Assembly: GCA_964414305.1 (NCBI GenBank)
Contig: CAYPVY010000001.1
Location: forward strand, 1 to 24,711
Reading direction: 5' to 3'
DNA length: 24,711 nt
Origin: an uncultured Nitratifractor sp.
Lineage (GTDB): Bacteria; Campylobacterota; Campylobacteria; Campylobacterales; Sulfurovaceae
The notes beneath the pieces are model-generated. The model was not told the DNA's origin, did no database searches, and worked only from the letters and a program-made list of their open reading frames with translations. Position 1 is the first letter of the stretch. Each line of letters opens with the position of its first letter. The position numbers and the translations under genes were made by a program. Below, piece after piece: positions 15,502 through 20,464 of this stretch.

Positions 15502-15711
15502 ATGTTAGATAAAAAAGATTTATTAGATGATATTAAGAAACTTTGGAATAATAGTAAAATTATTGAAGATTTTGATATCTCACCTCAAATTTTAGAATAT
15601 CTAGAGATTGAAGATTTAGAAAAATTAAAATATAAAATTTTAAATTCTATGAAAGAGTTAAATGACGAGCAAAAAGAGTGGTTATCAAAATTTAAAAAAA
15701 GTATAAACTAA
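15502..15711 (+). CDS. small acidic hypothetical protein (69 aa)
   Basis: ATG with SD AAAGGT, own extended -10, helical Leu/Glu/Lys-rich sequence that fills the gap between divergent genes. Confidence 0.7.
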   Translation: MLDKKDLLDDIKKLWNNSKIIEDFDISPQILEYLEIEDLEKLKYKILNSMKELNDEQKEWLSKFKKSIN

Positions 15712-16160
15712 ATACCCTTTTTTATCTTTATATACTCTTCAGCATCATAAGCTTCTATTCCTAAATCTTTTGCATATTGTGCCATTACGCCTGTTCCTTT
15801 AGAAGATATTAAATTTTTATCTCTATCATATACTTTTGCACTACATACACCACAACTTGGACTTCTATCTTTTCCTATAAATAATTCAATATCTTTATTA
15901 TTATCAAAAAAAGCCTTTGCATACTCTTTGATTGGTGGAGTTAAATCAGCATGAGTTAAGTTTGATATTACCTTTTGATTCTTACCATCATCAACTATAT
16001 CCATTGTTGGTCTTGGGGTGCCATAACAAAAATCTTCTGGACAAAATGGAATTAACTCATAGCACTCCAAAAGCCCAAGAAGTTTTGGGTCATAATTATC
16101 ACTTCCATCATATCTGCATCTATTGCCAAGCAAACATGCACTAATAGCTACTTTTTTCAT
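15708..16160 (-). CDS. DUF523 / 2-thiouracil desulfidase (TudS)-like Fe-S protein
   Basis: ISACLLGNRCRYDG, PFCPE, GTPRP, KDRSPSCG motifs; TAATG coupling to the upstream ALDH. Confidence 0.85.
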   Translation of the reverse strand: MKKVAISACLLGNRCRYDGSDNYDPKLLGLLECYELIPFCPEDFCYGTPRPTMDIVDDGKNQKVISNLTHADLTPPIKEYAKAFFDNNKDIELFIGKDRSPSCGVCSAKVYDRDKNLISSKGTGVMAQYAKDLGIEAYDAEEYIKIKKGI

Positions 16161-17611
16161 TAAAATATAACTACCGATTTAATCTCTGTAAACTCTTCAA
16201 GAGCAAACTTTGGCCCCTCTTTACCAATACCTGATTGTTTTATTCCACCATATGGTTGAATGTCAAATCTAACTGTTGGGATATCATTTACTACTACTCC
16301 GCCCGCTTCTGCATCATCAATAAAAGCCCTTGTATTTTCAAGTGAATTTGTAAAAATACTATATTGCAATCCATATGGAGAGTTATTTATCTTTTCTATT
16401 GCCTCTTCATAAGAGTTTACTTTAACAAGTGATACTATTGGTGCAAATACCTCTTCACACACAATTTTCATATCATCACGAACATCAATCATTACAGTAG
16501 GTGGAAAAATTCCATCAACCTCTTCTCCCCCATACAAAACTTTTGCTCCTTCATCAATAGCACTTGCTACCCATCTAGCAGCTCTTAGTTTTGCATCTTC
16601 ATTAATAAGTGGTCCCATAAAAGTCTCTTCTTCATATGGTGAACCAACTTTTAAAGTTTTTGCCTCATTTGCAAGAGCATTTGCAAACTCATCATATACA
16701 TTTTGGTGCACATAGATTCTTTGCAAAGATATACATACTTGACCACTATTATAAAAAGAGCCAAAAGCACACTTCTTAGCTGCATCTTCAATATCTGCAC
16801 TCTCATCAATAAAAGTTGCAGCATTTCCACCCAACTCCAAAGCAACCTTTTTTATACCAGCATTTTTCATTATTATTTTACCAACTTGAGCTGAACCTGT
16901 AAAACTAATAACCCTAGGAATTGAATTGCTTACTAGCTCACTACCAACCTCAGCATCGCCATAGACTACACTTAGTGCATCTTTTACTGCAAACTCACTC
17001 TCTATAAATAGTTTTGCCAAAGCATAGGCACACATAGGAGCTTCTGGAGTTGGCTTTAGAACTACTGCATTTCCAGCTCCTAATGCAGGTGCAATCTTGT
17101 GTGCTACTAAATTTAAAGGAAAATTAAAAGGTGTAATAGCACTAACAACACCTACTGGAACTCTTTTGTAATAAGCCATTGCCTTTTTCCCACTAGCTGT
17201 TGCATCTGTTGCAATAGTCTCTCCATGTAAATTAATCAACTCTTTAGCAGTAAGCTCTATTGTTTCTGCACATCTTATAACCTCAATTTTTGCAAATTTT
17301 AGAGGTTTACCTACCTCATCTACAATTAATTTAGCAAACTCATCACTCTTTTGTCTTAATTTTGATGCAACATCTTCTAGCCAACTTATTCTTTGATGTA
17401 GTGGTATATTTTTTGCTACTTTAGCTGCATTTTGTGCTATCTCTAAAGCCTTTTTTGCATCATTTGCATCACATTTTGGATATTTGCTAACTACTTTTTT
17501 TGTATATGGATTTTTTATCTCTATAAATTCATCTCTCTCTTCAATATTTGAACCAAATAGAACCTTTGCGATATTTGGTGTATCATCTGTTTTGGTAAAT
17601 ATATCAAACAC
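16160..17611 (-). CDS. NAD(P)-dependent aldehyde dehydrogenase
   Basis: ITPFNFPLNL, VVLKPT, FTGSAQVG, LELGGN (catalytic Glu), NSGQVCIS (catalytic Cys), EEVFAP, PYGGIKQSGIGKEG; GTG start with SD AAGGA. Confidence 0.93.
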   Translation of the reverse strand: MFDIFTKTDDTPNIAKVLFGSNIEERDEFIEIKNPYTKKVVSKYPKCDANDAKKALEIAQNAAKVAKNIPLHQRISWLEDVASKLRQKSDEFAKLIVDEVGKPLKFAKIEVIRCAETIELTAKELINLHGETIATDATASGKKAMAYYKRVPVGVVSAITPFNFPLNLVAHKIAPALGAGNAVVLKPTPEAPMCAYALAKLFIESEFAVKDALSVVYGDAEVGSELVSNSIPRVISFTGSAQVGKIIMKNAGIKKVALELGGNAATFIDESADIEDAAKKCAFGSFYNSGQVCISLQRIYVHQNVYDEFANALANEAKTLKVGSPYEEETFMGPLINEDAKLRAARWVASAIDEGAKVLYGGEEVDGIFPPTVMIDVRDDMKIVCEEVFAPIVSLVKVNSYEEAIEKINNSPYGLQYSIFTNSLENTRAFIDDAEAGGVVVNDIPTVRFDIQPYGGIKQSGIGKEGPKFALEEFTEIKSVVIF

Positions 17612-17856
17612 TATCTATCCTTTGTTGAGCAACTATTACTATTACAATAGCTCTTTTTTAATATAAATTTATAGATAAAATCTTTTATAATAAGTATTAT
17701 ACACCAAATCCATAAAATATCCATTATATAATTTCTTTTATAATCTAATGCAAAGTATAAAATTGGAACACCTATAGCAATAAACCATTTTGTATAATAA
17801 AAAAATAGTATCCCAGCCCCATATAAATCTTTTAGAATAGCTTTAATTGCTTTCAT
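17611..17856 (-). CDS. small two-TM membrane protein with C-terminal CxxxC (81 aa)
   Basis: ATG 17856 in TAATG overlap with the DUF59 stop; TAGTG overlap with the ALDH start; two hydrophobic segments; tail YCNSNSCS. Confidence 0.75.
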   Translation of the reverse strand: MKAIKAILKDLYGAGILFFYYTKWFIAIGVPILYFALDYKRNYIMDILWIWCIILIIKDFIYKFILKKSYCNSNSCSTKDR

Positions 17857-18164
17857 TATAAGCCACCTAAAGCTTTTTTTACACTCTCTTCGGCCATAGA
17901 TATATTCCACTCTGGCTCCCATACCAAATCAACCTCTACACTCTTAACACCATCTATATTTTTTGGAGCATCCTCTACCCATTGAATTAACATTTGATGC
18001 ATGGGGCATGATTTAGTAGAAAGAGTCATTGTAATTTTTACATTACAATCATCATCAATATCTACTCCATATATCAAACCCATCTCTACCAAATTAAAGC
18101 CTACTTCTGGGTCAATTATCTTTCTTAGTTCATCATAAACTTGCTCTTTTGTTACATTACACAT
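17856..18164 (-). CDS. DUF59 / SufT-like metal-sulfur cluster assembly factor
   Basis: LRKIIDPEVGFNLVEMGLIY, MTLSTKSCPM, VDLVWEPEWNISM; SD GAGGAG. Confidence 0.9.
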   Translation of the reverse strand: MCNVTKEQVYDELRKIIDPEVGFNLVEMGLIYGVDIDDDCNVKITMTLSTKSCPMHQMLIQWVEDAPKNIDGVKSVEVDLVWEPEWNISMAEESVKKALGGL

Positions 18165-18168
18165 CAAA

Positions 18169-19413
18169 TTACTCCTCTACTAACTTATAATTTAAAATAT
18201 ATAATACCGTCTTTACCATAAATATAGCACCAAATATTAGTAGAGAGACCCCTCCTTTAAACATAGCATCATTCCCAAACATCAAAGCAAACAACCCAAA
18301 TATCAATCCTAGCAAACTAAGCCAAAAAGAAAATTCAACATCTTTATTAGGTAGCATCTCATGAAGCATAGGCACCTTTTGTTTACCAACTAGTGGACTA
18401 AACCTCTCAAACCAAACTAAAAATGGTATAATCTTTATTAAATGTGCATTTATCATAAAAGTAACAAACCCTAACAAAAAGAGCCATATAGCACTTTTTA
18501 TTATTCTATCTCCTCCTAATATCAGCCAAAAAATCAAATAAACAATTACTAAAAACAAAGAAGCATATGCAACATATAAATGTTTATACCATATATCAAC
18601 TATTTTTCTAGCTCTTATATTATATAAAGTTACAATTTGTCTAATATATAAACCAACCCCTCCAATAATACCTATTAAAAATATTTCACTTAACAAATCT
18701 AATTTAAAAAATTTTGAAAGTGTAAAAAGAAGTGTTGAGATTACTAAAATTCTAAATGATAAGTTTACATCACTATCATCATAACCGTGAGCTAAACCAA
18801 ACATAGGTAATAAAATCATACTTATACCAATAATTGTTATCGTAACATACCCTATCAAAACAAAAGCTATATGTATATTTAAAAATTTATTGATATCAAG
18901 ATTAAATCCAATAGATATAGCCAATGCCATCAAAAAACCAATTATTATAGCAATAGTTAAAAAAATATTGCCTACTTTTATGGTTTTTACACTTAAAGAG
19001 TTTGATGATGTTTTTTTAAGAGTTGCAAATGTTTCATACAAAAATAGTATCATAGATATCAATACCAAAAAGCCTCCAATTGATAAAACCCAAGGGAAAA
19101 ACCAAAAACCAATTACCATAATAGATAAACCAAGTGCAAGGAAATAAAATATATATCTATATAAATCTATATTGTGATGACCCACCTCCAATACTACAGG
19201 TATAAGCTGTGCCATTGCTCCAAAAATTATTATCATCACAAACCCAAGCAAAAAGAGGTGAGCCCAACCTACTACTCTTAAATCTGTAAGTTCTAAAGAT
19301 TGATTTAAAAATAGTAAAGATATTATAGAAATCAAATAAGCAATTGAGCCAAATTTAAAAAAAGGCTCAATCATCTTTAATGGTGGAGCAAAATCTTTAG
19401 AGATTTGAATCAT
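18169..19413 (-). CDS. 12-TM integral membrane protein, heme-copper oxidase subunit I / NnrS-like fold
   Basis: About 12 hydrophobic helices in three 4-TM units; helices 2, 6 and 10 share a His/Gly/Pro pattern (AHLFLLGF...GAMAQLIP; IHIAFVLIGY...GISMILLP; LFLLGF...AHLIKIIP). Confidence 0.7.
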   Translation of the reverse strand: MIQISKDFAPPLKMIEPFFKFGSIAYLISIISLLFLNQSLELTDLRVVGWAHLFLLGFVMIIIFGAMAQLIPVVLEVGHHNIDLYRYIFYFLALGLSIMVIGFWFFPWVLSIGGFLVLISMILFLYETFATLKKTSSNSLSVKTIKVGNIFLTIAIIIGFLMALAISIGFNLDINKFLNIHIAFVLIGYVTITIIGISMILLPMFGLAHGYDDSDVNLSFRILVISTLLFTLSKFFKLDLLSEIFLIGIIGGVGLYIRQIVTLYNIRARKIVDIWYKHLYVAYASLFLVIVYLIFWLILGGDRIIKSAIWLFLLGFVTFMINAHLIKIIPFLVWFERFSPLVGKQKVPMLHEMLPNKDVEFSFWLSLLGLIFGLFALMFGNDAMFKGGVSLLIFGAIFMVKTVLYILNYKLVEE

Positions 19414-19417
19414 TTAA

Positions 19418-19750
19418 TTACCCACTACAACTTGTATCATCTAAATTTGCTTTATTACTTGCACCCTCTTTATAAGTAAACTCTAACTTTACTCTTCCAT
19501 CATCTAGCTTTTCTTCACTAATATTAAAGTTTTCTCCAATCTTATCAAGTAAACCCATAGGTTTTTTATGATTTATCATAATTAACTTTTTGTTTGGCGA
19601 ATCTATTAGCTTTAATCCTGCCATTGCATTAACCATAGGCTCAGGTGGACCACATCTGCTAGTATCAAATTCATAAACTTCTACATCACCATCTTTATAT
19701 CTATAAAAATCAACTGTTGCACCTGCAACTTCTACTTTTTCTTTTTCCAT
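19418..19750 (-). CDS. TusA/SirA-like (DUF2249-type) protein, 110 aa
   Basis: FDTSRCGPPEPMVNAM resembles the D-x-R-x2-(C)PxP TusA/DUF2249 signature; INHKKPMGL; ends SCSG; ATG 19750 with SD AAGGAG. Confidence 0.72.
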   Translation of the reverse strand: MEKEKVEVAGATVDFYRYKDGDVEVYEFDTSRCGPPEPMVNAMAGLKLIDSPNKKLIMINHKKPMGLLDKIGENFNISEEKLDDGRVKLEFTYKEGASNKANLDDTSCSG

Positions 19751-19773
19751 CTTTAAATACTCCTTTTTTGAGT

Positions 19774-19782
19774 ATTCTATCA
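19774..19782 (-). promoter_or_regulatory. extended -10 (TGATAGAAT) of the six-gene operon
   Basis: TGnTAGAAT on - strand 23 nt upstream of ATG 19750, preceded by a T8 tract. Confidence 0.65.
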
Positions 19783-19800
19783 AAAAAAATCTCTAAAATA

Positions 19801-19814
19801 TTGATTTATATCAA
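19801..19814. promoter_or_regulatory. Crp/Fnr-family (Fnr/Dnr/Nss-type) binding site
   Basis: Perfect TTGAT-TTAT-ATCAA; centre 19807.5, about -40.5/-41.5 from the inferred start site; the only such match I found in the window. Confidence 0.75.
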
Positions 19815-19836
19815 TTTTTAATATTTTATATAAAAT

Positions 19837-20334
19837 TTACTTATTTTTTAACTTTTTTATTTTTACTATTAATTTGCCATCTTTTATATTATAATCAATA
19901 CTTTTACTATCTGCATCTTTTGGAAGGGTAAAGCTTTGCATAAAAGAACTACTAGAAAAACTCTTAACTACACCATAACTACTATTATTTTCAAGGCTTT
20001 TTTTCTCTTCTACTTTTATTGTTAAAACTCCATCTTTTGCTTCTACATTTGCTTTAACATTACCTTTGCCTACATTTACATCAACTTCATAATAATCTCC
20101 CTTATCTTGAACACCTGAACTAATTATAGAACTTGAACTAATCATTGTAGGCATATTAGATTTATCTAAACTTTTAAAAACCTCATCCATTTGTTTTTGC
20201 ATCAATTCCATTTGTTTCATTTGCATTTGAAAAATTTTATCTATTTGAGAGAATGGATCACCATTTGTAGCTAAGCTATTTTGTGCATTTACTAAAGTCA
20301 ATGTTGCAATTAAACTAAATATATACTTTTTCAT
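19837..20334 (-). CDS. Hsp20/alpha-crystallin family protein with N-terminal signal peptide
   Basis: Alpha-crystallin C-terminus (VEAKDGVLTI, FMQSFTLPKDADSKSIDYNIKDGKLIVKIKK); MKKYIFSLIATLTLVNA signal; ATG 20334 with SD AAGGAG. Confidence 0.82.
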   Translation of the reverse strand: MKKYIFSLIATLTLVNAQNSLATNGDPFSQIDKIFQMQMKQMELMQKQMDEVFKSLDKSNMPTMISSSSIISSGVQDKGDYYEVDVNVGKGNVKANVEAKDGVLTIKVEEKKSLENNSSYGVVKSFSSSSFMQSFTLPKDADSKSIDYNIKDGKLIVKIKKLKNK

Positions 20335-20464
20335 TGCATACTCCTTAAATATATTTACATCAAAATTATATATAAGAAATATTTGAAAAAATTGCAAACT
20401 AAGTTGCATTTATTACACATTTTATATACAAAACTATAGTAAAATTAAAATAAAAAGGATATAT

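Follow-up and report, generated by a model that had tools for sequence, protein, structure and literature searches.

Comparative analysis of a predicted Crp/Fnr-controlled DUF2249, oxidase-homologue and DUF59 gene trio and an adjoining ALDH/TudS-like gene unit in an uncultured Nitratifractor sp.

A contig of 24,711 nucleotides from an uncultured Nitratifractor sp. (CAYPVY010000001.1, analysed over its whole length and referred to here as the window) carries six co-directional minus-strand open reading frames (ORFs), designated g1 to g6, which span positions 19750–15708 according to the ORF listing and a reading of the sequence. It is considered moderately probable that these represent a composite operon, in which a regulated and conserved trio, namely a divergent DUF2249 protein (g1), a membrane protein with the fold of the haem-copper oxidases (HCO; g2) and a DUF59 protein (g3), has been joined to a separate unit of a small membrane protein (g4), an aldehyde dehydrogenase (ALDH; g5) and a DUF523/TudS-like protein (g6), with the trio protecting, repairing or maturing iron centres at the membrane. 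The source is a metagenome-assembled genome (MAG) from hydrothermal-vent samples, with a size of 1.18 Mb, a GC content of 28% and a completeness of 75%. Neighbourhood counts given below refer to 80 Campylobacterota loci with a relative of g2, and genome counts to 301 sampled genomes of this phylum.

Distribution of the trio and of the ALDH/TudS-like pair

A DUF2249-like gene was found directly upstream of g2 in 73 of the 80 loci and a DUF59 gene directly downstream in 69, with g4 present near g2 in about ten loci, ALDH in five and DUF523 in four. An earlier note on this DNA had proposed that all six genes form one conserved functional module, a pathway for the repair or recycling of Fe-S clusters and sulfur induced by NO or low oxygen, in which the ALDH and TudS-like proteins would act as clients or detoxifying partners. 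The counts for ALDH and DUF523 do not bear this out, nor does the distribution of the ALDH gene itself. A single-copy ALDH orthologue (58–83% identity) was found in 65 of the 301 genomes, mostly unlinked to g2, and while it was present in all sampled members of environmental families, no copy was found in one family, for which 124 genomes were sampled and 79 carry g2. Among 29 ALDH loci, a DUF523 gene lies within approximately 1.3 kb downstream of ALDH in 20 and g4 just upstream in seven, with g2 beside the ALDH orthologue only in the sister genome G274. The stand-alone ALDH loci showed no enrichment of Fnr-type boxes (seven boxes in 130 kb), and the complete genomes of other families have the trio and ALDH separated by at least 200 kb.

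All six genes in this order were found again in a single sister genome, G274, where they have the same flanks as in the window. A second sister genome, G121, has the order rhodanese, small heat-shock protein (sHSP), g4, ALDH and DUF523, with the trio on another contig. Because these two sister species differ and the ALDH–DUF523 pair is conserved separately, the six-gene operon appears to be a recent, lineage-specific juxtaposition of two units and not a conserved pathway, and the ALDH and TudS-like genes are considered passengers of the regulated promoter. The earlier note had held that its proposal would fall if these two genes never co-occurred with the first four elsewhere; such co-occurrence was found within one family only, which comes close to that outcome. 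A single six-gene pathway could still be argued from the stop/start overlaps in the own genome and G274, from the same gene order with inserted genes in the MAG loci L004, L005 and L014, from loose same-strand synteny over 3.5–11 kb in the window's own family, from the finding of g4 beside both units, and from the grouping of a truncated globin, an HCO homologue, ALDH, DUF523 and a peroxiredoxin at locus L071; weighed against the absences, distances and separate contigs given above, this explanation is seen as rather unlikely.

In the window, g1 (19750–19418, minus strand, 110 aa) has an ATG start at 19750 preceded by AAGGAG. Its reading frame extends upstream to a TTG at 19783, and a start at this codon would run into the promoter described below. 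After a gap of 4 nt it is followed by g2 (19413–18169, minus strand), encoding a protein of 414 aa with twelve transmembrane helices, and then by the DUF59 gene g3 (minus strand), which runs to 17856 from an ATG at 18164, leaving again a gap of 4 nt, or from a TTG at 18167. The other junctions are stop/start overlaps of 1 nt, namely TAATG at 17856 (g3/g4), TAGTG at 17611 (g4/g5) and TAATG at 16160 (g5/g6), which connect g3 to the 81-aa small membrane protein gene g4 (17856–17611), the ALDH gene g5 (17611–16160) and the DUF523/TudS-like gene g6 (16160–15708), all on the minus strand. Upon rereading, the six minus-strand genes, every junction and the promoter were as the earlier note had described them, and its statement that no internal terminator is present agrees with a terminator scan at chance level, in which two sites were detected against 1.4 ± 1.2 in shuffled sequences, with only a weak 5-bp stem inside g1. 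Promoter-like matches were also at the level of the shuffles (33 against 32) and are thus uninformative on internal promoters. A single six-gene transcript would agree with the gaps, the overlaps and a terminator signal no higher than chance, and co-transcription is predicted.

Promoter and association with denitrification

Regulators of the Crp/Fnr family of the Nss/Dnr type control nap, nir, nor and nos in Campylobacterota. A candidate box for such a regulator, a perfect TTGAT-N4-ATCAA with the sequence TTGATataaATCAA, was found at 19814–19801 on the minus strand, followed by an extended −10 element (TGaTAGAAT, 19782–19774, minus strand) with a predicted transcription start near 19767. The box is centred at approximately −40.5 from this inferred start, a spacing as in class II Fnr-type promoters. 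Taking a class II Crp/Fnr promoter to be one with a consensus box centred near −41.5, a cognate regulator in the genome and conservation in orthologous promoters, the position, the conservation and the presence of a regulator were all found here, with binding and activation being predicted. The perfect box is not enriched within this AT-rich genome, with eight copies in 1.18 Mb against 6.2 expected; the significance of the operon box lies instead in its position and its conservation across loci. A TTGA-N6-TCAA motif precedes the g1 start by 62–76 nt in 58 of 70 orthologous loci, 34 of these 58 being perfect, compared to a background density of 0.054 per kb. The Crp/Fnr control suggested in the earlier note is thus backed by conservation of the box throughout the phylum. 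The same TTGA-N6-TCAA sequence is the published Nss consensus (Wolinella, Nitrosophilus) and precedes napA, norE and nosB in a related thermophile (PMC11539149).

Three perfect boxes are intergenic in the own genome, and these precede the six-gene operon, napA and a gene ahead of a ccoN-like oxidase gene. The second of them (C40:3413, locus L090) lies 70 nt before napA, with napAGH next, and the third (C12:15192, locus L088) lies 80 nt before a gene for a 190-aa protein with no Pfam match, which precedes the only COX1-family oxidase gene of the genome, probably ccoN. It should also be noted that these three sites hint at a small Fnr/Nss regulon of nap, oxidase and the six-gene operon. A Crp/Fnr regulator gene was found near the trio in 26 of the 80 loci, and of the two Crp/Fnr genes in the own genome, one is 63% identical to the trio-flanking regulator of other loci.

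A relative of g2 was found in 147 of the 301 genomes, including 35 of the 38 genomes with a cytochrome d1 domain, where it lies mostly 11–25 kb from the d1 gene. Neighbours of the haem d1 synthesis type were detected among the 80 loci as genes for precorrin-2 dehydrogenase-like proteins (21 loci), NirDL-like sirohaem decarboxylases (20), NirE-like methylases (13) and NirJ-like radical SAM proteins (11), and nap genes were present as NapA (15), NapG (14) and NapH (10). More distant relatives, with 25–30% identity, keep the order DUF2249(+DUF1858), HCO homologue and DUF59; one distant trio locus is accompanied by genes for ScdA-hemerythrin (RIC), hemerythrin and Rrf2, and other distant relatives of g2 adjoin hydrogenase-maturation genes. 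The nap and haem d1 neighbours, the cytochrome d1 genomes and the RIC/hemerythrin/Rrf2 context bear out the earlier note in linking the locus to the respiration of N-oxides and to NO stress. At some loci (L009:7195–7701 and L043:6755–7255), g4 was found to be followed by a DUF1858–DUF2249 protein, an FmdE-like gene and napA, giving a second DUF2249-type protein in the operon.

Alternatively, the trio could serve the maturation or transport of a single denitrification enzyme, such as cytochrome cd1 nitrite reductase, by exporting or inserting haem d1 or another cofactor. Its position directly after haem d1 synthesis-type genes in 11–21 of the 80 loci and the frequency of g2 in cytochrome d1 genomes, usually at 11–25 kb, would fit such a role, which is made very unlikely by the 112 sampled genomes with g2 and no match to cytochrome d1. 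These include all 63 genomes of the Campylobacter concisus group, each with g2 and none with a d1 match. The distant relatives beside RIC/hemerythrin/Rrf2 or hydrogenase-maturation genes also speak against it, and in the own genome, which is 75% complete, neither nirS nor a gene for d1 synthesis was detected, though both sister genomes have one. Since the trio is found in genomes free of nirS, the link would be to exposure to N-oxides or NO in general and not to one enzyme. In each of two large host-associated genera, g2 was found in none of 34 genomes. Cj0830, a membrane protein of the C. jejuni NssR regulon, was considered as a possible homologue of g2, and no open paper naming the two together was found.

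Proteins of the trio and proposed mechanism

The g2 protein gave no Pfam match at E ≤ 0.01, NnrS (PF05940) included, and its family comprises more than 1300 clusters at 50% identity. Its AlphaFold model (pLDDT 96.1) has twelve helices, and a Foldseek search with it returned 49 PDB matches at E ≤ 0.001; all among the 50 matches listed were subunit I of oxidases or NO reductases (NOR). The predicted fold matches those of CcoN, NorB and CyoB with TM-scores of 0.67–0.75. Positions 15–116 of the family profile match residues 307–411 of CcoN, that is TM9–12 (E 7e-11), with His52 of g2 aligning with the second His of the HVH motif of CcoN, the haem-ligand His of helix 10. Distant members of the family pass Pfam COX1 (P0245, 63.9 bits). 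Among 56 diverse members only His52 and His181 are invariant, and the Campylobacterota clade also keeps His79, His209 and His324, giving five conserved His. Neither the family alignment nor that of Campylobacterota showed a conserved helix-7 His pair or the six-ligand set of HCO and NOR, the five conserved His of the Campylobacterota clade lying at other positions.

The HCO fold together with only two invariant His, and without the full metal-ligand set, leads to the conclusion that g2 is, as far as can be judged from the model and the alignments, a non-catalytic HCO homologue, being neither an oxidase or NOR nor a member of the Pfam NnrS family. It probably binds a single haem or metal, because a His is kept at the position of a low-spin haem ligand while CuB/FeB and most haem ligands are lost. 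Alternatively, g2 might itself be catalytic, as an oxidase or NO reductase of a new type with g1 and g3 serving in electron transfer or assembly; this possibility draws on the fold of g2, on CcoN and NorB as its closest solved relatives and on its co-regulation and co-location with genes of N-oxide respiration. It is regarded as improbable in view of the two invariant His family-wide, the missing helix-7 pair and six-ligand set of the binuclear centre, and the lack, in the 80 loci, of a conserved neighbour of g2 encoding a cytochrome c or a quinol-binding subunit. The assignments in the earlier note were retained for the divergent DUF2249, the HCO fold, DUF59, ALDH and DUF523/TudS, with the exception of its NnrS-like label for g2 in the sense of Pfam.

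Two further observations concern g2. Many of the C. concisus orthologues are called 'peptidase M50' by NCBI (e.g., L094:4037–5227), which given the fold and the family looks like a mis-annotation. The own genome also contains a second copy of g2, 29% identical, on contig C92 (L089:2692–4635, minus strand), where the order is hemerythrin, a true DUF2249 (33 bits) and the HCO homologue, with no DUF59.

The first protein, g1, has a conserved GPPEPM motif, His61 and a Cys (Cys108) near its C-terminus. Its score against Pfam DUF2249 (PF10006) was 16.4 bits, below the cut-off of 29.5, and this model was matched by 11 of 30 g1 orthologues (best E 4e-6). Alignment of the g1 orthologue profile with the true DUF2249 of the own genome using hhalign gave a probability of 61% (E 8e-5) around the PEP motif, and the C. 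concisus orthologue is named a DUF2249 protein in UniProt. No PDB match at E ≤ 0.001 was obtained in a Foldseek search with the g1 model (pLDDT 93), the top match being the SirA-like 3hz7 (TMt 0.74, E 0.025), which is weak. These matches suggest that g1 is a diverged member of DUF2249 that adopts a TusA/SirA-like fold, the fold being modelled and read from this weak top match.

The third protein, g3, matches Pfam DUF59/FeS_assembly_P (PF01883) with 60 bits against a cut-off of 23.5, and reached the equivalog cut-off of neither SufT (95.6 against 143.4 bits) nor PaaD. Its Cys-Pro is invariant among 26 sequences and a His is nearly so (C53 and H56, numbered from the ATG start). An association with g2 is suggested by natural fusions, in which DUF59 lies on the C-terminus of g2 homologues (P0172, P0231 and P0265); in addition, an atlas cluster of 613-aa proteins carries DUF2249. 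Complex prediction for g2 with g3 gave a score of 0.43 against 0.01 for the best control and was graded as weak support; 58 of 80 solved complexes attained the mark for such scores, compared to 2 of 110 mismatched pairs. In the predicted interface g3 contributes its invariant loop residues 19–22 and 49–55, and g2 its most conserved residues at the ends of helices 2, 6 and 10 (69, 73–74, 203–205, 209–210 and 331–351). The face of g2 docking g3 would be cytoplasmic, as judged from the way oxidases are oriented in the membrane and from the fused DUF59 lying at the C-terminus.

From these properties the following mechanism is proposed. A Crp/Fnr regulator of the Nss/Dnr type would activate the class II promoter and drive g1, g2 and g3, and the trio would be produced during the respiration of N-oxides or in the presence of NO. 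The g2 protein would hold a single haem or metal at the low-spin haem ligand position of its repeat units, and g3 could dock on it from the cytoplasm, the invariant Cys-Pro-x-His loop of g3 meeting the conserved ends of helices 2, 6 and 10, as the fusions and the weak complex model suggest. By its strict adjacency, g1 may be a third, cytoplasmic partner with its conserved C-terminal Cys. Judging from the genomic context, the most likely role of the trio would be to protect iron centres at the membrane, or to repair or mature them, much as NnrS or RIC would. In this genus the regulated promoter probably also transcribes the g4–ALDH–TudS-like unit, since the trio directly precedes it.

Several points weigh against this reading. 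The same-strand proximity of trio and ALDH in the window's own family, where ALDH lies 0–11 kb downstream of the trio in several genomes, together with the occurrence of g4 beside both units, may reflect a looser functional tie between them. The trio is also present throughout the C. concisus group and in many other genomes without nirS. Support from the g2–g3 complex prediction is weak, and the place of g1 in the complex is deduced from adjacency. Co-transcription and induction are predictions from the DNA sequence, and the cofactor, activity and phenotype of all members are putative. A more specific version, in which the trio would be a non-respiratory machine on an oxidase scaffold, is thought unlikely. 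Here a site for haem or metal within the membrane (His52/His181/His324) would be linked to a Cys/His site on the cytoplasmic side (Cys53/His56 of DUF59 with His79/His209 of g2) and relay electrons or metal to repair or mature iron centres under NO, with g4, ALDH and the TudS-like protein recruited as partners or clients in this lineage.

The downstream unit, flanking genes and known systems

The g4 protein belongs to a conserved group of proteins, the genes of which follow g3 in some lineages and precede ALDH in the taxonomic family of the window. Its tail, given as CxxxC in the earlier note, is in fact C-x4-C (CNSNSC) and is retained only in ALDH-linked copies. The g5 protein matches Pfam Aldedh (PF00171) with 494.7 bits over 455 residues and has ELGGN and GQVCIS in its translation, so that a catalytic Glu and Cys can be recognised; no NCBIfam equivalog cut-off was reached, and the closest solved relatives are generic or lactaldehyde ALDHs. 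A score of 100 bits against a cut-off of 34.7 was obtained for g6 with Pfam 2-thiour_desulf/DUF523 (PF04463), and in a distant alignment with TudS 6z92 (E 2e-5) the SAC, FCPE and SPSCG motifs, holding the three [4Fe-4S] cysteines, are kept. By its domain and cluster cysteines g6 is considered TudS-like, with a putative desulfidase activity. The order of ALDH and then DUF523/TudS-like, often with g4 first, was seen across environmental Campylobacterota (window 15708–17856; loci L100–L128), and we know of no described function for this pairing. In a MAG of the Helicobacteraceae (L071:1018–7377), an HCO homologue with neither g1 nor g3 beside it is transcribed divergently from a truncated bacterial-like globin gene; behind the HCO homologue come genes for a 666-aa protein, ALDH, DUF523 and a peroxiredoxin of the AhpC/TSA type, in what resembles a stress-gene cluster.

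The 3' end of the operon is marked by a convergent plus-strand ORF (15502–15711) for an acidic protein of 69 aa with no Pfam match, which is kept at the same site in G274 and G121 with 52–64% identity. Upstream of the operon and outside the module lies a minus-strand Hsp20-family gene (19837–20409; Pfam HSP20), the product of which has a hydrophobic N-terminal leader and is possibly periplasmic. This gene stands directly ahead of g4–ALDH–DUF523 in G121 and is absent from this site in G274. The surrounding genes of the window are of the housekeeping type (aroE-like, trpE-like, dprA, nagZ-like, lpxK, argB-like and thrC-like).

About half of the sampled Campylobacterota carry the trio, among them nearly all cd1-type denitrifiers and every sampled human-associated genome of the C. 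concisus group, which makes it a well-defined target in the search for a missing accessory function of denitrification or of nitrosative-stress defence. The locus also illustrates that tight operon packing alone can mislead, as here a regulated module is joined to an unrelated conserved gene pair.

Among known systems, the families of three units with homology to haem-copper oxidases (HCOH) are the nearest to the trio. These were reportedly described by Pei, Li, Kinch and Grishin in 2014, who are also said to have placed NnrS in the same superfamily. The families reportedly share with g2 the HCO fold of twelve transmembrane helices, with one four-helix unit most like TM9–12 of the oxidases, and two conserved His. 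According to a passage of PMC11218638, which cites Pei et al. (2014), the association of DUF2249 with an HCO homologue is a published computational prediction, and the families share with the trio a genomic link to DUF2249 and to denitrification and NO genes. In contrast, the window locus adds g4, ALDH and the TudS-like gene downstream. The earlier note had known of no functional description of the six-gene combination; this holds in that no experimental work on the trio was found in the literature, and is to be amended in that the DUF2249/HCO-homologue link had been published from computation. A literature search for papers joining DUF2249 with DUF59, HCOH with heme-copper, or NnrS with DUF59 found none. 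What may be new in the window is the ALDH/TudS-like pair appended to the trio, and the specific claim for all six genes is weak.

Compared to CcoN of cbb3 oxidase and NorB, g2 has the same overall fold and its His52 falls on the haem-ligand His of helix 10 of CcoN, whereas it is only about 11–15% identical, lacks the CuB/FeB ligand set and a partner cytochrome subunit, and is shorter at 414 aa. NnrS is a haem- and copper-containing membrane protein of denitrifiers, which limits iron-nitrosyl damage in Vibrio cholerae. It resembles g2 as a polytopic, His-bearing membrane protein under control of the Crp/Fnr family (NnrR type) with a link to NO stress, and differs in that g2 has no match to PF05940 and an atlas feature score for the NnrS cluster of only 0.83. 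To our knowledge, NnrS does not come with DUF2249 and DUF59 partners.

DUF2249 proteins have been found in nitrate-respiration clusters and are induced under denitrification by a Crp-family regulator in Thermus thermophilus (PMC6282519) and Haloferax mediterranei (PMC11218638). In T. thermophilus, DrpA differs from the trio in its partner, the soluble, membrane-associating DrpB, which is not an HCO homologue, and a role as nitrate sensor has been proposed for DrpA; g1 for its part is a diverged DUF2249 protein that has a C-terminal Cys and, at its N-terminus, an additional beta extension. The Fe-S maturation factor SufT of Staphylococcus aureus is a DUF59 protein (PMC4982691) and has in common with g3 this domain and a conserved Cys, while g3 is below the equivalog cut-offs, is not beside suf genes and is fused to the membrane protein in relatives. 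Finally, the thiouracil desulfidase TudS (6z92) shares with g6 the DUF523 domain and the three cluster cysteines, from which g6 is set apart by its distance and by its conserved ALDH partner, a pairing that is not described for TudS.

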